64,000 nucleotides of DNA from NCBI GenBank assembly GCA_937902925.1, contig CALFNN010000080.1, forward strand, positions 1 through 64,000. Reading direction: 5' to 3'. This stretch comes from an uncultured Opitutaceae bacterium. GTDB taxonomy: Bacteria; Verrucomicrobiota; Verrucomicrobiia; Opitutales; Opitutaceae. This document shows positions 1,389 to 36,600 of this stretch, piece by piece (positions within the stretch are counted from its first letter, which is position 1; each line of letters opens with the position of its first letter). Position numbers and translations under genes: made by a program. Below the pieces are notes generated by a model. It did no database searches. It had not been told where the DNA came from and saw nothing but the letters and a program-made list of their open reading frames with translations.

Positions 1389-2906
1389 CTACGCGGAAGG
1401 CTTGTCGGGTTTCACGGCGTTTTTCAAGGCCGGCACCTGCTCGAGGAGTTTTTCGAACTTCACGCCGGTGAGCGCCTCGAGCACGGGCGGGAGCTGCGAG
1501 AGGATGGTGGTGACGTCGCCGGTGAGCTTGCTGGCGCCGCCGCCGGGACCGGAGCCGCCGCTGATGATGACCATCTTCTCCGTCTTCGCGAGCGGCGCGG
1601 AGATCTGGCCGGCGATCTCGGGCAGCGCCCGGACGATGAGCTCGATGATGGCGGCCTGGTTGTATTCCTTGAAGGAGTCGGCCTTCTTGCGCATCGCCTC
1701 GGCGGTCGCGAGGCCCTGCGCCTCGATGACGGTCGCCTCGGCGAGACCGCGCGCCTTGTTGGCGTCGGCCTCGGCGGTGCCGGTGGCCTTGACGACATCG
1801 GCCTGGGCGAAGCCGGTGGCCTTGGTGGCGGAGGCGGCGCCCGCGGCCTCGGTTTCAAGTTGGAATTTACGCGCGGTCGCGAGGGTCTCGACCTTGTAGC
1901 GCTCGGCGTCGGCGGGTTTTTGCACGTTGGCCTCGAGTTCGCGCTGCTTGCGGAGGATTTCCTGCTGCTGCAGCTCGATCTGCTTCTGTTTCTCGATGAT
2001 GCTGACCTGGACTTCCTCCGCCTTGACGAGCTGGTTGGTCTTGAACTTCTGGAGATCGTAGGCGAGTTCGGACTGGGCCTTCTTCTGGTTCACGGACGCG
2101 TTGTAGTCCTGGACATTCATCTGGTAGTCGCGCTGCGCCTCGGCGATTTTCGAATCGGCGGCGAACTTGGCCTCCTGGCCGGCTTGGGAGGCCTGCGCGG
2201 TGCGGATGGCGGCGTCGCGGTCGGCCTCGGCCTGGGCGATCTGCGCGTCGCGCTTGACCTGCGCGATGCGCGGCTTGCCGAGGGCGTCGAGGTAACCCTG
2301 CGTATCGCGGATGTCGCGGATGGTGAAGCTGACGATGCTGAGGCCCATGTTGGCCATGTCGCCGGCGGCGACTTCCTGGACCTTCGAGGCGAACGCGTCG
2401 CGGTTCTGGTAGATCTCCTCGACGGTCATCGTGCCGAGGATGGCGCGCAGGTGGCCCTCGAGGGTCTGCATCGCGATGTTCTTGATGTCGTCGACGCCCT
2501 TGCTGAGGAACTGCTCGGCGGCGGTGGCGATGGAGATGTCGTCGCCCTTGACCTTGATCTGCGCGACGCCATCGACCTTCACCGGCACGCCCTTGCTCGT
2601 ATAGACCTCGGGCGTCTGCACGTCGATGGTGAGGAGCTCGAGCGAGAGGATGTCGGCCTTCTCGACAACGGGGATGATAAACGTGCCGCCGCCCTTCACG
2701 ACGCGGAAGCCGCGGATCGAGCCCTTGCCGTCGGCGCCGACGATCCGGTGCTGGCGCCCGGAGACGATCAGCACCTCGTTGGGGCCGACCTTGGTGTAGC
2801 GGCTGGCCCAAACGATGAGCAGGAAGAATACGACAATGACGATGCCGACGACGGCGATGGCGCCGATGCCGAAGCCGCCGAGTTGAGCGAGGAGTGCAGG
2901 GTTCAT
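1389..2906 (-). CDS. flotillin-like SPFH/band-7 protein (YqiK/FloT type)
   Basis: N-terminal TM helix, SPFH domain (GGGTFIIPVVEKADILSLELLTIDVQTPEVYTSKGVPV), long EA-rich coiled-coil flotillin repeats. Start trimmed to the internal Met (MNPALLAQ); the upstream 39 codons of the ORF are Arg/Ser-rich run-on. Confidence 0.85.
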   Translation of the reverse strand: MNPALLAQLGGFGIGAIAVVGIVIVVFFLLIVWASRYTKVGPNEVLIVSGRQHRIVGADGKGSIRGFRVVKGGGTFIIPVVEKADILSLELLTIDVQTPEVYTSKGVPVKVDGVAQIKVKGDDISIATAAEQFLSKGVDDIKNIAMQTLEGHLRAILGTMTVEEIYQNRDAFASKVQEVAAGDMANMGLSIVSFTIRDIRDTQGYLDALGKPRIAQVKRDAQIAQAEADRDAAIRTAQASQAGQEAKFAADSKIAEAQRDYQMNVQDYNASVNQKKAQSELAYDLQKFKTNQLVKAEEVQVSIIEKQKQIELQQQEILRKQRELEANVQKPADAERYKVETLATARKFQLETEAAGAASATKATGFAQADVVKATGTAEADANKARGLAEATVIEAQGLATAEAMRKKADSFKEYNQAAIIELIVRALPEIAGQISAPLAKTEKMVIISGGSGPGGGASKLTGDVTTILSQLPPVLEALTGVKFEKLLEQVPALKNAVKPDKPSA

Positions 2907-2943
2907 GATAGGGTTAAGCTGGAGGGTTGAAAATCGCAGGGCG

Positions 2944-4323
2944 TCAGTCGGCCGTGACGTAGAATTGCGAGCCGACGACGCGCGTGATGCGGACCGCGCC
3001 GCCGTTGGGATGGGCTGCACCATCGTCGGCGCGGGCGGGCGCGGAGTAGCGCGTCCCGGATTGGACGTAGGCGATCTCGCCGACGCCGTCGGCAGCGATG
3101 GGCGTGATGACGGTGGCGTTGCAGCCGATCACATCGGCGATGCGGCCCTCGCTCGACGCCTGGGTGTTCCGGAAGATCGTCCGAAAAAGCCAAAAAACGC
3201 CCGCCGCGACCGCGAAGCCGCTCAGCGCGGCCAGTGGCGCGCTGACCCACGGGCTGCGGGTGGCATCGATCTCCGCGTAGATCATCCCGAAGCCGCCGAA
3301 CGAGGTGATGAACGTCGCGATGGTCGTCGGGCTCAGCGGCGCGAAGCCCGGCATGTCGCTGGCGCCGCCCCCGCCCTCGGCGTGGCCCTGGGCGTGACCA
3401 CCGCCGCCGTGCCCGGTATCAATGCTGTGCGCGATGTCGCCGTGCCCGCCGAGGACGTGGGCGCCGAGCGCGCTGATCAGCGTGAAGAGCAAGCCGACGC
3501 CGAAACACACGGAGTAGACAAGGAACGCCGTGGTCCCGGTCTGGGCGTCGACCTCCGCGGTGGCGAAACCCGCCGCACCGACACCGGCGAGCGAGAAGAC
3601 GCCCGACGGGACCTTGTTCATCGCGAAAAAATTGGAGAACTTCGCGCAGATGCCCGCGCCTCCGCCCATCGTGGCGGAGTGGGCGAGCGCGCCGCCGGCG
3701 AGCGCGGCGGCGAGGCCGGCGGGCGGCGCCGCGACGGCCTGCGTGGAGATCGCGAGGCCCAGGGCGGCGGCGGTGGACGTAACGCCCTTCTGCGCGAGCG
3801 CCTGCCGGAGTTTTTCGAGCGCACGCTCGGCCCGCATGCGCGCGGAGCTCTCGCCGATGCCGAGTTTTTTGCCCATCTCGGCGAAGGGCTGATCCTCGAA
3901 GTAGCGCATCAAGATGGGCGTGCGGTCGTGTTCGGCGAGATTGCAGAGCGCCGAATCCAGCAGCGGCCGGAGTTGTTCCCAGTCGGCCTCGTGGGCGGAG
4001 TCCCGTTCGATTTCTTCCATGGTGTGTGCCTCCTGTTCGCGGGCGGTGCGGCGCCGGCGTTCGCGCAGCGCCTTGAGCGCCGCAAACCGGGTGCTGGTGT
4101 AAAGCCAGCTCGTCAACACCGGCCGGTCGGCCAGCTCGCCCGCCTTGCGGGCGAGGTCGATGAAGACGCCCTGGCTGACATCCTGCGCGAGCAGCATGTC
4201 GCCGCCGACCTGACGCAGGGCGGCGGAATAAACGAGCCCCGCCTTGCGCCGAACGAGTTCGGTGAAGGCCGCTTCCGACCGCTCGCGAGCGTAGCGGCGG
4301 AGGAGTTCGGAGTCGTCGTTCAT
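2944..4323 (-). CDS. ECF sigma-70 factor (regions 2 and 4) fused through multi-TM segments to a C-terminal NfeD-like OB-fold domain
   Basis: Single uninterrupted frame. aa 1-190 carry sigma region 2 (LVYSAALRQVGGDMLLAQDVSQGVFIDL) and region 4 HTH (QPFAEMGKKLGIGESSARMRAERALEKL). Then 3-4 hydrophobic helices and a His/Gly-rich loop, then a YuaF/NfeD-type beta-barrel (GRIADVIGCNATVITPIAADGVGEIAYVQSGTRYSAPARA...VRITRVVGSQFYV). Start placed at MNDDSELLRRY (cat at 4321-4323). Confidence 0.7.
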   Translation of the reverse strand: MNDDSELLRRYARERSEAAFTELVRRKAGLVYSAALRQVGGDMLLAQDVSQGVFIDLARKAGELADRPVLTSWLYTSTRFAALKALRERRRRTAREQEAHTMEEIERDSAHEADWEQLRPLLDSALCNLAEHDRTPILMRYFEDQPFAEMGKKLGIGESSARMRAERALEKLRQALAQKGVTSTAAALGLAISTQAVAAPPAGLAAALAGGALAHSATMGGGAGICAKFSNFFAMNKVPSGVFSLAGVGAAGFATAEVDAQTGTTAFLVYSVCFGVGLLFTLISALGAHVLGGHGDIAHSIDTGHGGGGHAQGHAEGGGGASDMPGFAPLSPTTIATFITSFGGFGMIYAEIDATRSPWVSAPLAALSGFAVAAGVFWLFRTIFRNTQASSEGRIADVIGCNATVITPIAADGVGEIAYVQSGTRYSAPARADDGAAHPNGGAVRITRVVGSQFYVTAD

Positions 4324-4622
4324 CGCAGGGTTACACCCGCCGCGGAGGCAAATGGCACACGAGCCGGGTGATATTCGGAAAACCCCCGGGGCCGGGAGGC
4401 GGTGTCGAACCGGGATGCCGCCAGTCCAAGCCGGGCGGACCGGGGGCGGATCGGACGGGGGAGCGGAGGGTTCATCGGACGCCACGCATGGAAGCAGGTC
4501 CGCCGGATTAAATCACTTATAATGTCGCCGGAAATTCCCAGCGCCGCAGCGATCTTGCAAAAGCCGCGCCGCCACCGCCGCGGCTTGCCAAGCCGTGGGC
4601 GACTCCGCACGCTGCCGCCACC

Positions 4623-5093
4623 ATGGATTCCCACGAGGTGATGAGGGACGTGTTGAAGAAGACCAGCGCGAAGCAAATCGCCGCCGAGATGGGCCTGTCG
4701 CTGTCGTTGATCTACAAATGGGCGGAGCCGCCCGTGGATGAAAGCGGCAGCGGCACCGGCAGTCCGCTCGACCGCGTGGGCCAGCTCATCCGCATTTCCC
4801 GCGATGTGCGCGTGGCGCAGTGGGTGTGCGAGCAGGCCGGCGGATTCTACATCCGGAATCCGAAGAACCTGCCGACGGGCCAGCCGCTGATCCCGATGAC
4901 CAACGACATCGTGCACGAGTTCGCCGACATGCTGGCGACCATCGCCACGTCCTCGGCGGACAACGTGATCACGCAGGAGGAGGCGGAAAAAATCCGCGCG
5001 CGCTGGGAGGAATTGAAGAGCGTGACGGAAGGATTCGTCACCGCGGCGGAGAGCGGAAATTTCGGGGCGACGAAGGAGCTGGAGAAAAAATAG
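4623..5093 (+). CDS. hypothetical HTH domain protein, divergently transcribed from the sigma-NfeD gene
   Basis: 156 aa with an HTH-like segment KQIAAEMGLSLSLIYKWAE. No confident family assignment. Confidence 0.5.
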   Translation: MDSHEVMRDVLKKTSAKQIAAEMGLSLSLIYKWAEPPVDESGSGTGSPLDRVGQLIRISRDVRVAQWVCEQAGGFYIRNPKNLPTGQPLIPMTNDIVHEFADMLATIATSSADNVITQEEAEKIRARWEELKSVTEGFVTAAESGNFGATKELEKK

Positions 5094-5160
5094 GCCCGAC
5101 GGCGCCGGCCGGCCGGCGCCGGAACGTTGCGGCCATGCGGACCGCGGTCGCCTCCCTCTC

Positions 5161-5790
5161 ATGAATCCATCGTTTGACGCCGCGTTTTGGAACGACCGCT
5201 ACGGCGGCGACGGTTATGTCTACGGCACATCGCCCAACGAATTTCTCGCGTCGGTCGCGGCGGATGTTCCCGCCGGTCCCGTGCTCTGCCTCGCCGAGGG
5301 CGAGGGGCGTAACGCGACTTTTCTCGCCGGACGCGGTCATGCGGTGACCGCCGTCGACCAGTCGTCGGCCGGCCTCGCGAAGGCCGGCGCGCTCGCGCGG
5401 GGGCGCGGCGTGCCGCTCGCGACCGTCGTGGCCGACCTCGCGGATTTTGCGATCGCGCCGCAGGCGTGGTCGGGCGTCGTGGCGATCTTCATGCACCTGC
5501 CGCCGGCACTGCGTCGGGCCGTGCTCGCGCGCGCGGCGGCCGGGCTCCGGCCGGGCGGCGTGTTCGTGATGGAGGCCTATACGCCCGCGCAACCCGCCTA
5601 CGGCACTGGCGGCCCGCGCGACGTCACCCTTTTACCGACACTGGCGGAGCTCCAGGCGGAACTCGGCGACTTGGAGTGGCTGGTCGCCCGCGAACTCGTG
5701 CGTGACGTGCGGGAAGGCGGCGGTCACACCGGCAACTCCGCCGTCGTGCAGGTGCTCGCCCGTCGGCCGACGAGCGTCGACCGGCGCTAA
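5161..5790 (+). CDS. class I SAM-dependent methyltransferase (TehB/TPMT-like)
   Basis: Motif I VLCLAEGEGRNATFLAGRGHAVTAVDQS and post-I acidic residue; typical ~200 aa small-molecule methyltransferase. Confidence 0.8.
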   Translation: MNPSFDAAFWNDRYGGDGYVYGTSPNEFLASVAADVPAGPVLCLAEGEGRNATFLAGRGHAVTAVDQSSAGLAKAGALARGRGVPLATVVADLADFAIAPQAWSGVVAIFMHLPPALRRAVLARAAAGLRPGGVFVMEAYTPAQPAYGTGGPRDVTLLPTLAELQAELGDLEWLVARELVRDVREGGGHTGNSAVVQVLARRPTSVDRR

Positions 5791-6410
5791 GGTTCGTCGT
5801 CCGCGATCTCCGGCGGCTTGATGGCGGTGAGCAGGCGAGCGAGTTCGGCCGGCGTGGGATTGCGGATGGAGCGCACGGTGAGGATGGATTCGCCGGCAGG
5901 AAGCCTGACTTGGTTGGACGCGCCGACTGCGAGGCCGAGCGTGGCGGTGGCGAGCGGGGAATTGTGGGGCAGGCATTCGATGCCCGATTCGGGATCGGTG
6001 GCAGTCTCGCCGTGCGTGGTCACGAGAAACGTGAACCGGTGTTTTCGCTTCGTCGCGACGTCCACCTTTTCGATCGTGGTCACGTGCCCGAGCTGGAGGG
6101 TATCGGTCGGCTTCGTTAGCCACGAGGCGGGATCGACCTCGATGAACGTGTTGCGGGCGACGAAGCGGTCGAGCGCGGTCATCTTGCGGTCGACGGCGCG
6201 GATCGCGTCCTTGGCGGCCTTGAAGCCGAAGTTCTCGCGCAAATCGCCCTGGCTGTGCGCCTCGACCTTGTCCGCGACGAGGCCGACGCGCTTGACCTTG
6301 AGCGCCTCGAATTCCTCGGCCAGCACGCGGTTGTAGCCCGGCCGCACGTAGATCGTGGTGGGAGCGGGCGGGGGGATGCGGAAGATGCGTTTGCGGGCGA
6401 GAGGCATGCG
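5787..6410 (-). CDS. GreA/GreB-family transcription elongation factor
   Basis: N-terminal coiled-coil with DLRENFGFKAAKD (GreA DLSENAEY-like) and C-terminal FKBP-like domain VQLGHVTTIEKVDVATKRKHRFTFLVTTHGE...LGLAVGASNQVRLPAGESILTVRSI. Start uncertain; 6410 or 6449. Confidence 0.7.
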   Translation of the reverse strand, partial: RMPLARKRIFRIPPPAPTTIYVRPGYNRVLAEEFEALKVKRVGLVADKVEAHSQGDLRENFGFKAAKDAIRAVDRKMTALDRFVARNTFIEVDPASWLTKPTDTLQLGHVTTIEKVDVATKRKHRFTFLVTTHGETATDPESGIECLPHNSPLATATLGLAVGASNQVRLPAGESILTVRSIRNPTPAELARLLTAIKPPEIADDEP

Positions 6411-6565: not shown

Positions 6566-6919
6566 ATGCCGGCCAAACATCGCATTTTCACGACGAGCGT
6601 CGCGAGGGTCTATCCCTACTACCTCGCCAAGGCGGAAAAAAAGGGGCGGAAGAAAGCGGAAGTGGATGCCGTGATTTGCTGGCTGACCGGTTACACGCCG
6701 CGGCAATTGGGGGGCGAGTTGAGGAAGCAAACCGACTTCGAGACCTTCTTCCGCGAAGCGCCCAAGCCGAATCCGGCACGGAAGTCGATCACCGGGACAA
6801 TCTGCGGCGTCCGCGTGGAAGACATCGAGGAGCCGACGATGCGGGAGATCCGTTACCTCGACAAACTGGTCGACGAACTGGCCAAGGGGAAGCCGATGGA
6901 AAAGATTTTGCGGACGTGA
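6566..6919 (+). CDS. DUF2200 family protein
   Basis: [43 protein letters not shown] matches the conserved DUF2200 N-terminus. Confidence 0.75.
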
Positions 6920-7152
6920 CGGCCGTGCTCCGGCTGAGGGCTGAAGTCAGGCGGCGGTGCTGCGGCAGATTCGAAAGTGGGGCCCGCTCTCCCGGCGGCC
7001 TGGGTTCCAACGAATTCGCGTGAAGAACCGTCGAGGCGGCCTGGGTTTTAGGATGGTTCGCCGAAGGAGCGGGCGGGCCGTAGCGCGAGCAGAGAGGGGT
7101 TGCACTCGTCTCCGCGGTTGGTCTTTAAGGATCGCCTCTACTTCGCACGACC

Positions 7153-7734
7153 ATGGCGACTTCCGATTCCCGTGTAACGCTTCACATGGTGGCGAGCCTC
7201 GACGGCTTCATCGCGCGCAAGGATGGGCGCGTCGACTGGCTCGAGACCGCCGACGAATTCGTCGGCGGGGAGACGATGGCCTCGGGAGCGGTCGAGGCGT
7301 TTCTCAAGACGATCGACTGCTACGTGATGGGCTCGCGCACCTACGAGGTGGCGCTGAACTTCGCCGCCCAGGGGCTGGGCTGGGCATATGGCGAGAAGCC
7401 CACCTTCGTCCTCACCCGGCGCACCTTGCGGCGGTCGCGCGAGACGGTGGAGTTTTGCGCAGGCGATCTCGCGGCGCTCATGACGGAACGCCTGCGGCCC
7501 CGTTTCCGCTCCATCTGGGTGGTCGGCGGCGGGGCCGTCGCCGCTGAATGCCTCCGGCGCGGGCTCGTGGACGAAGTCCGCTACTCGATCATGCCCGTCC
7601 TGATCGGCGAGGGGATTCCCTTCTTCGGCAACCTCGACCGCGATCTCGCCCTCCACCTGGTCGAGGTCAAGGGTTACCAGACCGGCATGGTGGGGTTGCG
7701 CTACGAGGTGAAGTTGCCGCCGGGCCGCCTTTGA
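7153..7734 (+). CDS. dihydrofolate reductase-family protein (RibD C-terminal domain, YwjB-like)
   Basis: RVTLHMVASLDGFIARKDG...CYVMGSRTYEV...IWVVGGGAVAAECLRRGLVDEVRYSIMPVLIGEGIPFF is the RibD_C/DHFR-like fold. Confidence 0.8.
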   Translation: MATSDSRVTLHMVASLDGFIARKDGRVDWLETADEFVGGETMASGAVEAFLKTIDCYVMGSRTYEVALNFAAQGLGWAYGEKPTFVLTRRTLRRSRETVEFCAGDLAALMTERLRPRFRSIWVVGGGAVAAECLRRGLVDEVRYSIMPVLIGEGIPFFGNLDRDLALHLVEVKGYQTGMVGLRYEVKLPPGRL

Positions 7735-7852
7735 CGGTTGCGAGCGACCGCCCGGCTCCGCCAAGGTCGGCCCGAGGGTGGCGTTGCGCTGCGAATATCT
7801 AAAGGATCGGATTTCCGACTGGTGGGGCTCGTTGTTCGTCACGAGGCAGCCG

Positions 7853-8160
7853 TCACTGCTCTTTCGCGCCGCCGTCGTAGCGGATGGCGTGGCCGACGGC
7901 GAGCAGGGAGTTGTTTAGGAAGGCGAAGCCTTCCGGGTGAGAGGTGATGGGTGACGGGTGATGGGCTTCATCCTGACCTTTGGCCTCAGACCCCTGACCT
8001 ATGGCCTGGCGGATGAACGCATCCGCCAAATACCAATCATATTTGTCGGGCTTCGTGGTGCAGACGATCACTTCGTCGCCGGGTCTGAGGAGGGCATCGA
8101 CAAAAGCCTTGGCGTCGCGGCGGGCGGCGGTGGTTGCGGGCCGGCAGTCTTACGGGCCGA
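7853..8160 (-). pseudogene. 3'-terminal remnant (duplicate) of the DUF1016_N-thermonuclease gene
   Basis: ~300 bp is ~90% identical to 8912-9217. The 72-aa ORF MIVCTTKPDKYDWYLADAFIRQAIGQGSEAKGQDEAHHPSPITSHPEGFAFLNN... mirrors the C-terminus of the full gene at 8912-9973. No N-terminal part is present. Confidence 0.65.
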
Positions 8161-8587
8161 TGTTCAGCCGCAGCGTGGTGGCGAGCCTGCGTTGGTTCGC
8201 ATCGAACGACAGAAAGGTCGTCGCTTTCAGCAGCCTCGCGGTGGCGACGTGCAGAATATCGAAGGAGCGGTGCCCGCCGCTCACGGTATGAAGCTCGGAC
8301 AAGCGCGCCGCCTCGGTTACAATGCCCGCCAAATCGCAGGAGGCCGGCTGCAGATGGCCGCTTTTAAGATCGGCCTCGACTGCGGCCAGTGAGGCCCGCG
8401 CGTCGGCAGGGGAGATGGCTTTGCGAAAGGCGGCGAAACGAATCGCGTTGCCCAGTTCGTAACGGCCAAGCGCGGTGACCGTGATCGGCAGTTGGGCCTG
8501 CTGCACCCAATTTTTGGCCGCCGGCGTGTGCGCGTCGTTGCCAAACAGCGAAAAGAGAAAACTCGTGTCGGCGACGGCGGCAGCCAT
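8150..8587 (-). CDS. vapC: PIN-domain toxin VapC
   Basis: MAAAVADTSFLFSLF...D at N-terminus, conserved acidic PIN residues, 145 aa. Start 1 nt after the antitoxin stop. Confidence 0.8.
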   Translation of the reverse strand: MAAAVADTSFLFSLFGNDAHTPAAKNWVQQAQLPITVTALGRYELGNAIRFAAFRKAISPADARASLAAVEADLKSGHLQPASCDLAGIVTEAARLSELHTVSGGHRSFDILHVATARLLKATTFLSFDANQRRLATTLRLNIGP

Positions 8588-8588
8588 G

Positions 8589-8834
8589 TCAGGAGCCCTG
8601 ACTGTCGGCCAGGAGCGCGCCGCTTTCGTCCGCCGTCAGGGTGGTGGCCCAGGCCCGGCGGCTGAGCGCGGCACTCTGCGACCAATCCACCTGCGTCGGT
8701 CTCGCCGCGGAAGGCGGAACGACCTTCGCCACGATTTTGCCCCGGCGCGTCACGTCGACTTCCTCGCCTTTGGCCACCCACTTGAGCACCTTGGAATAAT
8801 TGTTCCGCAGCTCGCGCACCGTTGTCGTTCTCAT
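8589..8834 (-). CDS. Phd/YefM-family antitoxin
   Basis: MRTTTVRELRNNYSKVLKWVAKGEEVDVTRRGKIVAKVVPP is a canonical Phd/YefM N-terminus. Start trimmed from the GTG-initiated ORF to the internal ATG. Confidence 0.75.
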   Translation of the reverse strand: MRTTTVRELRNNYSKVLKWVAKGEEVDVTRRGKIVAKVVPPSAARPTQVDWSQSAALSRRAWATTLTADESGALLADSQGS

Positions 8835-8911
8835 GTGCGACACAGTGTAGCACATCGCGGTCATGTCAATCGGGGAGGCGTCGGGCGACAGGGTCGGCGG
8901 AAGCGTGGCCT

Positions 8912-9973
8912 TCACTCCTCCTTCGTGCCGCCGTCGTAGCGGATGGCGTGGCCGGCGGAGAGGAGGGCGTTGTTGAGGAAGGCGAAGCCTTCCGGGTGAG
9001 AGGTGATGGGTGAAGGGTGATCGGCTTCATCCTGACCTTTGGCTTCAGACCCCTGACCCATGGCCTGGCGGATGAACACATCCGCCAAATAACGATCGTA
9101 TTTGTCGGGCTTCGTGGTGCTGATGATCACGTCGTCGCCGACGCGGAGGAGATTTTCCACGAAAGCCTTGGCGGCGCGGCCGGCGGCGGTCGAAATCTCC
9201 GGACAGTCGATCCCGCGCAGGCGCAGTTTCAACTGGTGCGTGAGGCCCGGCGCGACCGCGAGCGCGACGGCTAGCGTGTCGCCGTCGACGATTTTGCGGA
9301 TGGTGGCGACATAGGTGAAGAGCTGGTCCTTCGTCGCATGTTCCACCTTGCGGACGCCGTCCTCGTTCAACCGCACGATGTCCGTGGTCGTGAGCTTGGA
9401 GGCGGGGCCGAGCGAGCGGTAGAATTTGAACCCGAGATCGACCTCGGGGCCGTCGCCCAGATCGACGATCGGGTGCAGCCCCGGCGTGCCGAAGCGGGGC
9501 GTGAGGAGTCCGACGGGTGGGGCCGGCGCGGCGTCGTCCGAGGCGAGCGCGATGGCGTTGTAGGAGCGCACGCGCGTTTCGAGATCGGACTTGGTCCAGT
9601 TTTTCCGGATGGCCTCGGCTTCGAGCGTTTTTCGCTGCGCGGGGTCGGCGATCTGGATCAGCAATTGGTAGTGCGACCAGATCAATTTGGCATCGCGATG
9701 CCAAATCGGGTAGCACCGGTGGAACTGGGCGCACTGGCGCAGCGAGCGTTCGCTGATGTGGATGTCCGCAGTGAGTTTGGTGTAAACCCGGGCGCCGTAA
9801 TCGGCGCGGTCGCGAAACAGCAGCACGTGTTCGTTGATGAGCCGGCCGGTCTCGTGATAGGTGCCGAGCCACGCGCGATCGATTTCCCCGCGTCCCTGGA
9901 CGACGACGGCGATCACCGCATCGCGCAATTGCGCGTAGGTCTTCGGCGTCGGGGTGAGCGCGCGCGCGGGCAT
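8912..9973 (-). CDS. DUF1016_N (YhcG N-terminal) domain fused to staphylococcal-nuclease-like (SNase/thermonuclease) domain
   Basis: N-terminal half: YHETGRLINEHVLL...ADYGARVYTKLTADIHISERSLRQCAQFHRCYPIW...IWSHYQLLIQIADPAQRKTLEAEAIRKNWTKSDLETRV (YhcG_N pattern). C-terminal half: VDGDTLAVALAV...LRLRGIDCPE...AAKAFVENLL..VIISTTKPDKYDRYLADVFI (SNase fold). The first 211 codons of the ORF track entry are Arg-rich run-on; start set at MPARAL. Confidence 0.7.
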   Translation of the reverse strand: MPARALTPTPKTYAQLRDAVIAVVVQGRGEIDRAWLGTYHETGRLINEHVLLFRDRADYGARVYTKLTADIHISERSLRQCAQFHRCYPIWHRDAKLIWSHYQLLIQIADPAQRKTLEAEAIRKNWTKSDLETRVRSYNAIALASDDAAPAPPVGLLTPRFGTPGLHPIVDLGDGPEVDLGFKFYRSLGPASKLTTTDIVRLNEDGVRKVEHATKDQLFTYVATIRKIVDGDTLAVALAVAPGLTHQLKLRLRGIDCPEISTAAGRAAKAFVENLLRVGDDVIISTTKPDKYDRYLADVFIRQAMGQGSEAKGQDEADHPSPITSHPEGFAFLNNALLSAGHAIRYDGGTKEE

Positions 9974-10054
9974 GGTGGAGGCGGGACGGCGGTTTTTTGG
10001 CCGATCCACGTCGGAAAGTCGCGCGGAAACTGGACGACGCGGACGGGATCGAAG

Positions 10055-10150
10055 AGCACCAAGCACCAGTGAAGCACCAACGTTCAAAACTCCGATGACG
10101 GGAGCTTGAAGTTTCTCTGGGGTCTGGACGTTGATGCTTGGAGTTTTCGG
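10055..10150. repeat. intergenic palindromic repeat element (CCAAGCWCC-unit family), copy A
   Basis: caccaagcaccagtgaagcaccaa...ttgaagtttctctggggtctggacgttgatgcttggag, shared with 11247-11352 and inverted at 36468-36600. Confidence 0.7.
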
Positions 10151-10194
10151 CACGCCGCGCTGCCCCGCCAGACCTCGACGGCGGCGCCGACGCC

Positions 10195-11118
10195 CTATTT
10201 CTTCGGTGCCTGCGCGTCGTAGAATTCCTTGATCAGCCCCATGATTTGCGGGAGTTGCGCCTCGGCCTTCACCGCGTTCAACTGGGACTCCGACAGGAAC
10301 GACTGGGACTGCGCGATCACCTGGTTCCAGTCGGTCGTCTGCGGGGTCACCCTGCCGCCGCTCTGGTAGGTGCTGTTGGCGTTGGCGATCACCTTCAGGA
10401 GTTGATTCGATTGGTCGGGGGTGAATGGCCGGAAAACGGACATCGACGAGATGTCGGTCACGGTCCGCTCCAAGGGTTGCAGGCGGCGGAAATCCTCGAA
10501 GCTCTTGAACCCCTCGTCGCCGAGGATCTGTTTGATCTCGTCGTCCTTCAGGTTCGGGTCGTCCGGATGAACGCTGTTTGGGGTGAGCGCCAGGCTGTTG
10601 ATCCATTTCTCGGCGGTGGCGGTTTCCATGGCGTCGATTTGATCGGCCGTGAGCACGCCCGACCGGATGAGAGAGGAGAAATTCCGCTCAATCTGGGCCC
10701 GGCCGAGGTTCATCAGCATCGGCTTCACCTGGGCACCGTAGGCGGCGACGAAAGCCTGGCCGTCCGCCAGCGATTGCTTCCGCGCGGCTTCGGCGGCGGC
10801 TTTGCCGGGAGCCGGCATCGCGGGCGGACGGGGCCCCGGCGACACGGCGGCGGTTTTTGCCGCCTGCACCGCCGCCTCCTGTTCCTTGAGCTGGGCCTGC
10901 AATTGCGTCTGCCCCTGCTCCGCGGCGCGGGCCCGCCCCGCCATTTCCTGCAACTGTGCGAGGTCGGTCTGATGGACACGCTCCGCGGCGGTCACGGAAT
11001 CCTCCGCCTGCCTCGCCTGGGTAAACTCGTAGACGGCGATCCCAACGGCCAGGACCGTCAGAATTCCAAACAGCTTTAGTAGCGGCGAGGCAGCCCGTGG
11101 GCGATCGACAGGGTTCAT
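10195..11118 (-). CDS. hypothetical membrane-anchored coiled-coil protein
   Basis: N-terminal TM helix (LLKLFGILTVLAVGIAVYEF) then Q/A-rich coiled coil; no family recognised. Confidence 0.5.
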   Translation of the reverse strand: MNPVDRPRAASPLLKLFGILTVLAVGIAVYEFTQARQAEDSVTAAERVHQTDLAQLQEMAGRARAAEQGQTQLQAQLKEQEAAVQAAKTAAVSPGPRPPAMPAPGKAAAEAARKQSLADGQAFVAAYGAQVKPMLMNLGRAQIERNFSSLIRSGVLTADQIDAMETATAEKWINSLALTPNSVHPDDPNLKDDEIKQILGDEGFKSFEDFRRLQPLERTVTDISSMSVFRPFTPDQSNQLLKVIANANSTYQSGGRVTPQTTDWNQVIAQSQSFLSESQLNAVKAEAQLPQIMGLIKEFYDAQAPKK

Positions 11119-11246: not shown

Positions 11247-11352
11247 AACACCAAGCTCCAACCTCCAGTGAAGCACCAAACTCCGAAGCCCCGGTAGTGA
11301 GGAATTGAGGTTTGAAGTTTCTCTGGAGCTTGGACGTTGGTGCTTGGAGCTT
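11247..11352. repeat. intergenic palindromic repeat element (CCAAGCWCC-unit family), copy B
   Basis: caccaagctccaacctccagtgaagcaccaaactccga...ttgaagtttctctggagcttggacgttggtgcttggagcttt. Confidence 0.7.
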
Positions 11353-13239
11353 TCAGCGCTCGGCGCCGATGCGCCAGATCTCGAAGGCGGCATCGCCGAA
11401 GCCTTTTAGCTTGGCGCTTTCACGCGCGCTCGTGAGGCCGGACGTGGGTGCGGCGAGGTGGGCGGCGACTTCGCCGTCGGCGTGGACCGCAGCGGAGAGA
11501 ATCAGGTCGGCGCCGGTGCACAGGCCGCAAAGGCGCGCAGTGGTGTTGACCGTCGTGCCGAAGTAATCGAGCCGCTCGTTCTGGTTGATCGCGAGGCACG
11601 GGCCGCAATGAATGCCGGCTTTCAACGCGAGCGGCTTGAGCGAGGAGGGCGGAACCGTCACGCCCTCGGGGAGCGAGAAATCCTGCGGGTGGGCGAGATG
11701 CTGTTGCGCGTGCAGCATCGCGCGGAGCGCGGCCACCGGTCGGGGGAACACCGCCATGATCGCGTCGCCCATCGTCTTTACGATGCAGCCGTTCTCGGCG
11801 GCGACGGCGGCTTTCAGGATTTCGAAATGCGTGAGCACGCGGCCGAAGGCGGGCGCGTCGCCGATGTCCTGGTAGAGTTGCGTGGAATTCTTCAGGTCGG
11901 TGAACACGACCGTCATCGAGCCCACGCTGATTTGCTCGCCGTGGCGCAGCACCTCGCGCGAGAAGAGGTCGCGGAAAAGCTGGAGCGACGTCACCTCGGC
12001 GGCGGTCGTGGATTGATCGCTCCAGGCGACGCGCTCGATGATGGCGAGGTGTTCGTGGCCGTCGGCGTTGACCAGCGTGAGCTGGCCGTCGGGCGCGACG
12101 AGATGCTCGGTCAACGACGAGGCGCCGAGGTCGATGCGCGCAGCGGCGGGCGCACCCGGCGCGGTGCGAAACGTGTGTTGCTCCGGCAGCCGCGGCGTGC
12201 GGACGCGGTAGCGGCCCGGGTCCAGCGCGAGCGGCAACACGCGGCGTTCGCCGGGCCGGAGCGACTGCTGGGCAACGACGTGCGGCGTGACCTGCGGGCC
12301 GCCGACGCAATAGTCCGCGCGCGTGACCGCGCGGATGGCGGGGTTCGGGATGAAGGTGAGCTCGACCGACTGGTCGAAGTTGGCGGTGAAATCGACGTTG
12401 CAGGTGTCGCAGTGCGCCGACGCCTTGACGGCCGAGAGCGAGGACTCGCTGGCCTTGGCGCCACGGCAGTGCGGGCAGACGAGATCCCAACTGAAGTCCA
12501 GGGCGCCGGCGCGCGTGGCGTGGAGGAAAAGCAGCAGCGTGTTTTGCCGGCTCGCGCGCCATTCGTCGGCGAGCGCGTAGGGGCGGATGCGGGCGGCGGC
12601 GAGATCGTCGGCGGTGGTGAGGAATTCCGTGAACCGGCCGACGAGCGGCGGGGGCTGGCTGGCGTCGTCGACCAGCGCGCGGCCGATCCGGGCGAGGCGC
12701 TCGGTGCCGCCGGAGGCGAGCCGGGGCCTTTGCGCGAGCTGCGAGGCCCGCAGGCCACGCTGGGCAAATTCGTCATAGCGGTGGAAGACGCGCCGGGTGG
12801 TGGCGCGCGCCCGCCGGCCGATGGAGAACGGCAGCGCGAGCCGGCCGAGGAAATTCGAGGGCGTCAGCCGCATGTCGTAGACGAGAGTGGTGCCGCCGCC
12901 AGCGCGCGGCGTGAGCTCGCAGAACATCAGCATCTTCGCCACGGGGCCGCTGTAGTAGGTGCGCTCGACACCGTAGCGCGTCGGCGCGAGCCACTCGAAG
13001 GCGAGTTCATCCCACTCGATGGTGACGCCCAGCACCGCGGCGCGGAGCCGGCGGGCGTTGGTGACCGGCGCGATTTTTGCCGCGGCGGCGCCGGGGCCCG
13101 ACGGCGTGACGACGGTGACCGGCGGGTAGCCGCAATCGCGGTTGAAGCGATCGGTATTGGAGACCAGCGGCCAGAGCGCCTCGGGCGGCGAAACGAGATC
13201 CCAGGTCCAGCGGAAATGTTGCTCGGAAAAGGCGGGCAT
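11353..13239 (-). CDS. adenylate/guanylate cyclase domain protein (class III CHD at C-terminus)
   Basis: C-terminal block MTVVFTDLKNSTQLYQDIGD...IVKTMGDAIMAVF...AGIHCGPCLAI...DYFGTTVNTTARL is a class III nucleotidyl cyclase; N-terminal region carries a Cys cluster (CPHCRG...CDTCN). Confidence 0.85.
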   Translation of the reverse strand: MPAFSEQHFRWTWDLVSPPEALWPLVSNTDRFNRDCGYPPVTVVTPSGPGAAAAKIAPVTNARRLRAAVLGVTIEWDELAFEWLAPTRYGVERTYYSGPVAKMLMFCELTPRAGGGTTLVYDMRLTPSNFLGRLALPFSIGRRARATTRRVFHRYDEFAQRGLRASQLAQRPRLASGGTERLARIGRALVDDASQPPPLVGRFTEFLTTADDLAAARIRPYALADEWRASRQNTLLLFLHATRAGALDFSWDLVCPHCRGAKASESSLSAVKASAHCDTCNVDFTANFDQSVELTFIPNPAIRAVTRADYCVGGPQVTPHVVAQQSLRPGERRVLPLALDPGRYRVRTPRLPEQHTFRTAPGAPAAARIDLGASSLTEHLVAPDGQLTLVNADGHEHLAIIERVAWSDQSTTAAEVTSLQLFRDLFSREVLRHGEQISVGSMTVVFTDLKNSTQLYQDIGDAPAFGRVLTHFEILKAAVAAENGCIVKTMGDAIMAVFPRPVAALRAMLHAQQHLAHPQDFSLPEGVTVPPSSLKPLALKAGIHCGPCLAINQNERLDYFGTTVNTTARLCGLCTGADLILSAAVHADGEVAAHLAAPTSGLTSARESAKLKGFGDAAFEIWRIGAER

Positions 13240-36467: not shown

Positions 36468-36600
36468 GCTTTTCAGAAGCTCCAGACTTCAAGCGCCAAG
36501 CTCCAGAGAAACCTCGAAAATCGAAGTCGGGAAAATCAGGAGCTGGGAGGTTGGGAGCTTCATGGGAGCTTGGAGATTGGTGCCGGGAGCTTCCGGCTCG
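36468..36600. repeat. intergenic palindromic repeat element (CCAAGCWCC-unit family), copy C (inverted)
   Basis: caagcgccaagctccagagaaacctcgaaa is the reverse complement of tttgaagtttctctggagcttgg in copies A/B; also ggagcttggagattggtgccgggagctt. Confidence 0.65.

Follow-up and report, generated by a model that had tools for sequence, protein, structure and literature searches.

The current study concerns a toxin-antitoxin (TA) cassette and the nuclease gene behind which it lies in a 64,000-nt stretch of DNA from an uncultured Opitutaceae bacterium (contig CALFNN010000080.1, positions 1 to 64,000, hereafter the window). In this window, a Phd/YefM-VapC pair is bracketed by two copies of the 3' end of a gene encoding a fusion of a DUF1016_N domain and a staphylococcal nuclease (SNase) domain, one copy being the end of the intact gene and the other a decayed remnant. 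Probably, an old insertion-duplication created a TA slot equipped with nuclease homology arms, and recombination among nuclease paralogs and alleles then spread this slot, swapped its contents and partly refreshed it. The descriptive part of this account is very likely correct, and the chances that the spread occurred by homologous recombination are about even. The nuclease gene, phd/yefM, vapC and the remnant are all encoded on the minus strand and follow one another in that transcription order:

8912..9973, minus strand: intact nuclease gene, 353 aa (Pfam, PADLOC, AlphaFold/Foldseek, SNase motif columns)
8908..9208, minus strand: upstream repeat copy, consisting of the last 98 codons of the nuclease gene, its stop codon and 4 nt (repeat alignment)
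8835..8911, minus strand: 77-bp spacer with the TA control region (TTGACA box and 23-bp palindrome, conserved block)
8589..8834, minus strand: phd/yefM-type antitoxin gene, 81 aa, ATG at 8834 (Pfam PhdYeFM)
8150..8587, minus strand: vapC toxin gene (PIN domain), 145 aa (Pfam PIN, homologue lengths)
7853..8149, minus strand: nuclease 3' remnant, 98 codons, which is the downstream repeat copy (codon alignment)

An earlier note, made from the letters of the window, had proposed that some 300 bp of the nuclease 3' end are duplicated at ~90% identity, that the Phd/YefM-VapC pair sits between the copies with the homology ending at the vapC stop, and that the arrangement is the footprint of a recombination event. 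Alignment of the two segments gave significant similarity and bears out the duplication, as a repeat finder recovered a gap-free direct repeat of 283 nt (7849-8131 versus 8908-9190, 89% identity, period 1059 nt) and homology at the codon level extends further, to 8149/9208. Over the full 297 coding nt the identity is 86%, and the 98-codon peptides are 79% identical. The proposed identity is matched over the 283 nt, but it is unevenly distributed: divergence is ~30% in the first 70-90 nt after the joint and ~8% in the remaining ~213 nt, and in a maximum chi-square test of this breakpoint 0 of 2000 permutations reached the observed value. The boundaries of the repeat are equally well defined. 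One lies 4 nt beyond the nuclease stop codon, the DNA homology on the remnant side reaching 7849, and the other lies at the vapC stop, just as proposed, where TAA is followed directly and in the vapC frame by GAC TGC, the D-C of the nuclease motif GIDCPE. The idea of a recombination footprint is likewise supported, with a self-contained Phd-VapC cassette inside the bracket. The only other sizeable local direct repeat in the window is a neighbouring pair at 10055-10192 and 11254-11398. The GC content of the island (0.62-0.66 versus 0.68-0.73) is slightly lower, which is not diagnostic.

The bracket is not an artefact of assembly. The sequences used for comparison were metagenome assemblies throughout, with about 100 loci examined (numbered here with the prefix L). 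Two of them, L001 and L105, derive from separate ENA assemblies and cover the entire TA-remnant bracket at 99.9-100% identity, while the nuclease-phd junction is also present at 99.9-100% in a further separate ENA assembly (L002), whose sequence stops within phd. In addition, the repeat copies differ at 42 of 301 positions and are therefore too diverged to have been confused at the k-mer level during assembly.

The downstream copy starts only at the D-C of GIDCPE and continues to the stop, so that the start codon and the first 255 residues of the nuclease are missing. Two catalytic residues are also gone, Glu (DCPE to DCRP) and Arg (DKYDR to DKYDW), both at columns that are invariant in the family; the R-to-W change and a V-to-A change at a further family-invariant column are both common to the remnant at L089. 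Neither the remnant nor a 72-aa open reading frame (ORF) that the gene caller placed on it has a Pfam match. Because the start codon and both catalytic residues are gone, we regard this copy as a remnant, and it is predicted to be a non-functional pseudogene fragment of the nuclease gene. Its history appears composite: the 3' two-thirds are 92% identical to the adjacent nuclease gene, and the 5' third carries old remnant-specific changes. The ratio of nonsynonymous to synonymous substitution rates (dN/dS) between the repeat copies is 0.56. Both copies share the hypervariable insert ..GQGSEAKGQDEA.HPSPITSHPEG.., which in this form is absent from other homologues.

The same sandwich is found in other genomes. 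Phd-VapC cassettes with a VapC identity of at least 81% occupy about nine other genomic contexts in Opitutales metagenomes. In an Opitutales metagenome-assembled genome (MAG; L003, JBBRLB010000041), the whole nuclease-phd-vapC block is 83% identical to that of the window, with homology running from 18 nt ahead of the nuclease start to the vapC stop, after which decayed sequence (~125 nt) leads into a second nuclease tail of ~70 nt. Cassettes of the closest VapC relatives (81-90%) are located downstream of sucA (L087), an M20 peptidase gene (L089), RNase PH (L091), lipA (L093), a GFO_IDH oxidoreductase gene (L095/L099) and NamZ (L096), and on another contig (L106). The contexts marked by sucA, the M20 peptidase, lipA, GFO_IDH, NamZ and the clpB island of L003 are mutually unrelated. 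Nuclease-derived sequence follows the vapC stop in all of the closest-relative contexts (L087, L089, L091, L093, L095/L099, L096 and L106), whereas the more distant VapC relatives (74-77%) have no nuclease-derived flanks. Among the bracketed relatives, cassette DNA is 81-87% identical.

The joints themselves also recur. A vapC stop followed immediately by GAC(T/C)G is common to L093, L095 and the window; the joint reads TAG GACTG-GAGATCGA in L093, corresponding to DCPEIS, TAG GACCGAGG in L095, and TAA AGCTACCGGACCGCG in L096 compared with TAA GACTGCCGGCCCGCA in the window. In L089 and L091, vapC is followed by AACCAC, a remnant-specific string that is present in the window as well, and then by the GDEVIVC region. 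Positions 4456-4509 of L089 are 87% identical to the window remnant versus 77% to the intact nuclease gene, and share with the remnant the TGG (Trp) and GCG (Ala) codons at the family-invariant positions. Decayed remnant pieces together with the tail (..RYDGGAKEE*) are found in L003, L087, L093, L095 and L106, where the remnant carries the insert CTCAACTCTCAACTCGGTGCCGAyGGCA, encoding LNSQLGADG, as in the L004 allele. On the other side of the cassette, upstream of phd, the full nuclease gene is retained in the window and L003. L106 keeps it from about residue 125 onward, L093 over residues 201-353 and L087 over residues 262-353, and all that L089 and L095 retain is a degraded tail. Since identical joints and shared derived changes occur in these loci, the joint was formed once, before the cassettes diverged, and since the joint and the remnant-specific changes recur in other contexts, the composite is old and has been inherited or spread as a unit. 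The junction was thus not made in the genome of the window, which instead holds its best-preserved copy.

Phd-VapC is not the only occupant of the bracket. In L030, L059 and L083, an AbrB-like antitoxin gene and a different PIN toxin gene lie between the nuclease 3' end and a remnant with the same insert and tail. L095 and L099 have a ParE/Unstab_antitox pair, which is enclosed by the post-vapC remnant and a further copy of insert and tail, giving the order tail, Phd-VapC, tail, ParE TA, tail. Consequently, three TA families occupy nuclease-tail brackets, and the bracket is best described as a TA slot. The array spans 2651-4309 in L095 and 9650-11310 in L099 and is also present in L100, L101, L103 and L104; its ParE pair is on the opposite strand, and no nuclease gene is nearby. 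Those contigs that reach the third tail (L099, L100, L101 and L104) end ~65-165 nt beyond it, which suggests that a repeat breaks the assembly there. The phd gene of the array (L099 9757-9999, also L095 2757-2999) was left uncalled by the gene caller; its frame looks open and vapC is intact, and its operator palindrome is degraded (ATGTGCTCCGATGCGTCGCGCATG), so regulation of this TA pair may be altered.

The chromosomal locus of the window occurs both with and without the insert. Its gene order is HprK, RNase PH, a cyclase-like gene, a gene for a 307-aa protein, the nuclease, the TA pair, the remnant, RibD_C, DUF2200 and a GreA-like gene. The uninterrupted arrangement is found at the same locus in L006, where HprK, RNase PH, the cyclase and the nuclease gene follow one another without the 307-aa gene, the TA pair or the remnant. 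L004 has the nuclease gene and, farther on, the GreA-like gene, with no TA pair. In L059, the nuclease is followed by the AbrB/PIN pair, the remnant, IetAS and DUF2200, and only the DUF2200 flank is shared with the window. L091, which has no nuclease gene, reads HprK, RNase PH, Phd-VapC with remnant vestiges, and DUF2200. The same locus thus exists in the form of nuclease alone, nuclease with either of two TA types, and TA alone.

The second bracket of the window lies next to the nuclease gene, at 10055-10192 and 11254-11398, around the 307-aa gene (10195-11118, minus strand), which has no known domain. Its repeat comprises the last ~45 nt of the cyclase-like gene (11353-13239) and ~100 nt downstream at 70-79% identity, and the repeat copy begins right after the stop of the 307-aa gene, again in frame. 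As syntenic L006 has the cyclase followed by the nuclease without the 307-aa gene, this gene looks like another insertion-duplication. The non-coding part of this repeat (10055-10150 and 11254-11350) is a ~100-nt palindromic element; because a third site of the window (36477-36592) matches it, on both strands and at ~70%, it is probably a dispersed repeat resembling repetitive extragenic palindromes (REP) or miniature inverted-repeat transposable elements (MITE). Comparable structures were seen elsewhere. L003 carries three copies of the clpB 3' end (4410-4543, 5551-5813 and 10180-10441; 76-90% identity), which separate a 4.4-kb island containing the nuclease-TA block from two small genes, one encoding an HpiC1-like protein, apparently with a PEP-CTERM anchor at its end, and the other its neighbour; the pattern is the same, every insert being followed by another copy of the gene end. 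Both L003 and L006 also contain two copies of the 3' end of a small gene (C-terminus ..RGTITEYKGQPQIEIT..). In L003, copies that are 99% identical (8098-8240 and 8556-8698) enclose a 72-aa DUF433 ORF and look recent, and in L006, copies of the same gene end (9046-9134 and 12333-12421) are 90% identical and 3.3 kb apart.

The TA pair inside the nuclease bracket is unremarkable in itself. The antitoxin matches PhdYeFM (PF02604, 1.6e-8), its residues 1-42 aligning to profile positions 1-43, and the toxin matches PIN (PF01850, 6.6e-9) over residues 5-136 of 145. Nearly all of 739 VapC homologues are 145 aa long (range 143-152), so the C-terminus and stop of vapC are native and were not made by the joint. 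A gap of 1 nt separates the phd stop from the vapC start, and a 23-bp palindrome at 8833-8855, with the inverted repeat ATGTGCGACAC/GTGTAGCACAT, overlaps the phd start codon and presumably serves as the operator. The block upstream of phd (...CCCCGATTGACA...ATGTGCTACACTGTGTCGCACATG), which includes a TTGACA box and the palindrome, is conserved in six loci; scans of the gene strand for consensus promoters and terminators returned no match. A longer, 108-aa antitoxin ORF starting from GTG at 8915, which would overlap the nuclease stop and be translationally coupled, was rejected: it runs through the promoter region, and its 5' extension is closed by stops in L087 and other loci, which marks it as an annotation artefact. 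The cassette thus has the makings of an autonomous type II TA module, with a Phd-type antitoxin, a VapC PIN toxin and its own putative operator. It resembles type II VapBC modules with Phd/YefM antitoxins in placing the antitoxin before the PIN toxin with a 1-nt gap and a palindrome over the antitoxin start, as well as in being a small module scattered across many genomic contexts. What sets this lineage apart is the nuclease-gene debris that constantly flanks it.

The nuclease itself is one of a large family. Domain searches matched DUF1016_N (PF17761, 2.5e-12, residues 30-137) and SNase (PF00565, 2.8e-6), confirming the fusion that the earlier note had described. Its AlphaFold model (predicted local distance difference test score, pLDDT, 82) contains a helical DUF1016_N domain (~13-145), a small beta domain (~166-209) and an SNase oligonucleotide/oligosaccharide-binding (OB) fold (~220-340), with a disordered hypervariable insert at residues 305-325. 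In Foldseek comparisons, the C-terminal half matches staphylococcal nuclease structures (E 2e-6, template modelling score, TM, 0.69), and the catalytic and metal-binding motif columns DGDT, LRLRGxDCPE and KPDKYDRYLADV (KYDRY) are invariant in 28 homologues. Model and motifs together point to a member of the SNase superfamily, with the OB fold and equivalents of the Ca-binding and catalytic residues (Asp, Asp, Glu, Arg, Arg). In PADLOC, only the N-domain (residues ~12-145) was matched, by models of the candidate defence gene PDC-S02 (down to 2e-18). As the protein has no Pfam match to the PD-(D/E)XK domain YhcG_C (PF06250) and its C-terminal half models as an SNase fold, it is a domain-swapped relative of the YhcG/DUF1016 nucleases and not a member of that group. 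It shares with YhcG/DUF1016 nucleases and PDC-S02 the DUF1016_N domain and a defence-island neighbourhood, but has a small beta domain and an SNase fold in place of the PD-(D/E)XK C-domain. The architecture, called atypical in the earlier note, does carry that replacement, yet it is common to at least 895 database proteins that match the nuclease, nearly all with the same two Pfam domains and mostly from Opitutae, which are named 'thermonuclease family protein' or 'DUF1016 N-terminal domain-containing protein'. The family extends to Omnitrophota and Planctomycetes. It is also multi-copy, with 7 loci in one Opitutaceae MAG and 3 or 4 in several others; a metagenome scan with a single nuclease protein returned 4 loci, 1 of them useful (L083).

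A sliding comparison of the window nuclease gene (8912-9973) with those of L003-L011 and L030 gives a strongly mosaic identity profile. Which relative is closest switches every 100-200 nt, with L005 (91%), L030 (89%), L003 (90%) and L009 (91%) each leading in different segments, and such profiles indicate frequent recombination among alleles and paralogs. The low-complexity, hypervariable insert (window 8951-9040, residues ~305-330) ranges from 0 to 45 aa among homologues. In L003, L030 and L059, its DNA forms a perfect hairpin, GCCGGGCTC GTT GAGCCCGG, and the L003 hairpin (6895-6960) recurs 3 kb away on the opposite strand (10119-10178), which suggests that small palindromic repeats have inserted in frame. 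A different insert, with a small covarying hairpin (CGGTGCC-GAY-GGCACCG), is carried by the remnant lineage.

A variety of defence genes is located directly 3' of close nuclease paralogs: Hachiman HamB in L008 (1192 bits, 7090-10236), a reverse transcriptase-nitrilase of a defence-associated reverse transcriptase (DRT) system in L009 (845 bits, 7186-10158), a restriction-modification (RM) methyltransferase in L010 (3814-5898), an AriA/GajA-like ATPase in L004 (7276-9198) and a Schlafen/AlbA_2 protein in L006 (7697-8908). IetAS (1772-5307) and CapP (4508-5293) lie 3' of the L059 and L083 paralogs, respectively. The first two downstream ORFs across 66 loci also include Cas3, type III RM and PDC-S01, in addition to ordinary metabolic genes. 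DUF1016 genes are enriched beside RM and bacteriophage exclusion (BREX) systems and are present on mobile elements (PMC9881135, PMC4316617, PMC3424549). On the basis of these neighbourhoods, defence hotspots seem to have the nuclease gene at their border. To speak of a defence or addiction islet, as had been suggested for the window, is therefore reasonable for the nuclease family, but the sole such cargo in the window itself is the TA pair.

Based upon these features, the following course of events can be proposed. One ancient insertion-duplication would have put the cassette at the end of a nuclease gene, with the last ~300 bp of that gene on both sides and the illegitimate joint at GA/GACTG, just past the vapC stop. 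The event may have been a homology-facilitated illegitimate recombination or a Campbell-type single crossover. The resulting composite of nuclease end, TA and nuclease end is now found in about ten genomic contexts, with arms in varied states of decay. Because the nuclease gene is multi-copy, the nuclease sequence flanking the cassette can act as homology arms. A double crossover or conversion tract with another nuclease gene would copy 'gene end plus TA' behind that gene and leave the gene intact, recombination between the arms would loop the cassette out and restore a single gene, and exchange between nuclease paralogs or alleles would swap the TA pair within the bracket. Conversion from the live gene could also overwrite part of the remnant, which fits the 92% segment of the window and the lack of indels between the copies. 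Finally, an addictive TA pair may outlive a decaying adjacent nuclease gene, which fits the loci with TA and debris.

Several considerations weigh against this account. None of the fetched loci is a clean empty site with the window's own flanks. The movement steps are ones that we infer, none having been observed, and part of the pattern could have arisen without any hopping, if an old composite was inherited vertically and then rearranged and decayed. Furthermore, the 2-5 nt of microhomology at the joint are too few to pin down the original mechanism, and homologous recombination alone leaves the first entry of three TA types unexplained, which weakens the case. It is also weakened by the fact that several of the junction homologies are short decayed stretches whose alignments were read by eye. 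As for mobility genes, no integrase or transposase was found among the genes called in the cassette loci (about ten contexts, on short contigs), except at the distant L097, nor did ten large ORFs of the window, tested within 1-22 kb, include one or any other recombinase; mobilisation of the cassette in trans is possible, as is an integrase farther away than the contigs reach.

The array of L095/L099, the three TA families found between tails, and the similar gene-3'-end brackets around other small genes in the same genomes could each be taken to mean that the ~50-nt nuclease tail is an attachment (att) site, at which an unidentified recombinase or the nuclease itself builds arrays like those of integrons or cis-mobilizable elements (CIMEs). 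We consider this unlikely. Besides the lack of an integrase or recombinase in the loci examined, the repeat varies in length from ~50 to 300 nt without a fixed core. Selection on the nuclease tail at the DNA level was rejected, the proportion of identical codons at synonymous sites being 0.80 there versus 0.83-0.84 in other segments, so that conservation is not raised. A conserved RNA structure in the remnant was rejected as well: nothing like attC was seen, RNAalifold gave a weak structure with a positive covariation term, and the sole compensatory changes lie in one small 7-bp hairpin. A phage or plasmid origin of the tail was likewise discarded, as the tail has no exact match in a viral contig collection. 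Also quite improbable is a related and more ambitious idea, namely that the nuclease 3' end is a docking site at which a dedicated mechanism, possibly the nuclease cutting near the end of its own gene, captures TA and defence cargo. If true, this would be an integron-like cassette system without an integrase, making target duplications 50-300 nt long, and it would explain both the presence of Hachiman, DRT, RM, IetAS, CapP and Cas3 directly 3' of different paralogs and the own-3'-end brackets at the cyclase, clpB and an OB-fold gene.

No insertion-duplication at all would be needed if two tandem nuclease paralogs had a TA pair between them and the downstream one had lost its 5' 255 codons. The family is indeed multi-copy, and remnant and intact gene have diverged (by 30% over the 5' part of the remnant, with the overall dN/dS given above). 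However, this scenario requires a deletion with its endpoint precisely at the vapC stop codon, none of the approximately 100 loci has a full-length nuclease gene on each side of a TA pair, and the hypervariable insert common to both window copies is in no other homologue; we therefore give this scenario quite a low probability. Least credible, and very improbable in our view, is that the nuclease works together with Phd and VapC as a single defence or addiction system of three genes, to which the remnant is incidental. Such a unit would account for the whole block shared by the window and L003, and gene callers do fuse the antitoxin ORF to the nuclease stop. Against this, related TA pairs occur without a nuclease gene in L089, L091 and L096, and no PIN gene is present among the first two downstream ORFs in 62 of the 66 nuclease loci with usable downstream sequence. 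As the TA occurs without the nuclease and most nuclease paralogs are without a TA, the two are not a functional pair. Moreover, the TA has its own putative operator, the extension of its ORF is not conserved, and TA identity between the window and L003 (82-96%) does not follow the mosaic identity of the nuclease (54-90%). A three-gene functional unit was rejected on the stand-alone TA pairs, the TA-less nuclease loci and the decoupled identities.

An old insertion-duplication followed by recombination through nuclease arms has parallels among known systems, each of which differs in some respect. Phage 21 and e14 integrate in the 3' end of E. coli icd, with the element supplying a replacement end, and genomic islands integrate in the ends of tRNA, tmRNA or trmE genes. 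As in icd-type integration, the target gene in the window is intact and a diverged, displaced or duplicated 3' end lies beyond the insert, but the window bracket has no integrase, the insert is only 0.76 kb, the repeat ranges from ~50 to 300 nt among loci, and the bracket also travels to places without the target gene. Neither a tyrosine or serine recombinase nor att repeats with a fixed core, as expected of an integrase-borne island or CIME, were found at the cassette loci examined, and neither attC sites with RYYYAAC/GTTRRRY cores nor intI, as expected of an integron, were found on these short contigs, where the repeated unit is the coding tail of the nuclease. Full-length rhs/cdiA polymorphic toxin genes are followed by displaced 'orphan' C-terminal modules. 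These resemble the window in the order of full gene, small genes and 5'-truncated 3'-end copy, and arise by recombination at conserved sequence, but the intervening genes in the window are a TA pair and not an immunity gene, and the remnant is decaying and has no alternative toxin domain.

Two other processes come closer to the individual steps. Homology-facilitated illegitimate recombination in naturally transformable bacteria was reportedly described by de Vries and Wackernagel in 2002; with one homologous anchor and one microhomology joint of a few bases, foreign DNA can be inserted and recipient sequence duplicated. The joint behind vapC, at GA/GACTG, resembles this, which makes the process a candidate for the founding event only. 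For the later exchange, the nearest analogy is with the minimal mobile elements of Neisseria, cassettes that are exchanged via homologous recombination in conserved flanking genes (PMC1797815, PMC3787668). In both cases varied cargo lies between the same flanks, there are no mobility genes, and homologous recombination is invoked. The difference is that here both flanks are direct repeats of the 3' end of one gene and move with the cargo, an arrangement that would also permit loop-out and entry behind any paralog. The ingredients are of known kinds, namely a TA pair, SNase and DUF1016_N domains, the duplication of gene ends where DNA inserts, and the exchange of cassettes by way of flanking homology. 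The literature searched held no direct parallel for TA insertion by homology-facilitated illegitimate recombination or for a TA pair flanked by gene remnants, nor a precedent for a TA lineage that takes both arms, derived from one multi-copy host gene, through many contexts in a bracket shared with other TA types.

Chromosomal TA pairs are notoriously mobile although they usually lack a mobility gene, and their means of movement are poorly documented. In the present case, a single cassette lineage is traceable through about ten contexts with pieces of one host gene at both of its ends. The bracket would thus provide concrete sequence evidence for the movement and exchange of TA pairs via borrowed homology arms, in which a multi-copy target gene is not destroyed. 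It also draws attention to an uncharacterised nuclease family, widespread in Verrucomicrobiota and Omnitrophota, as a candidate defence gene or hotspot anchor.

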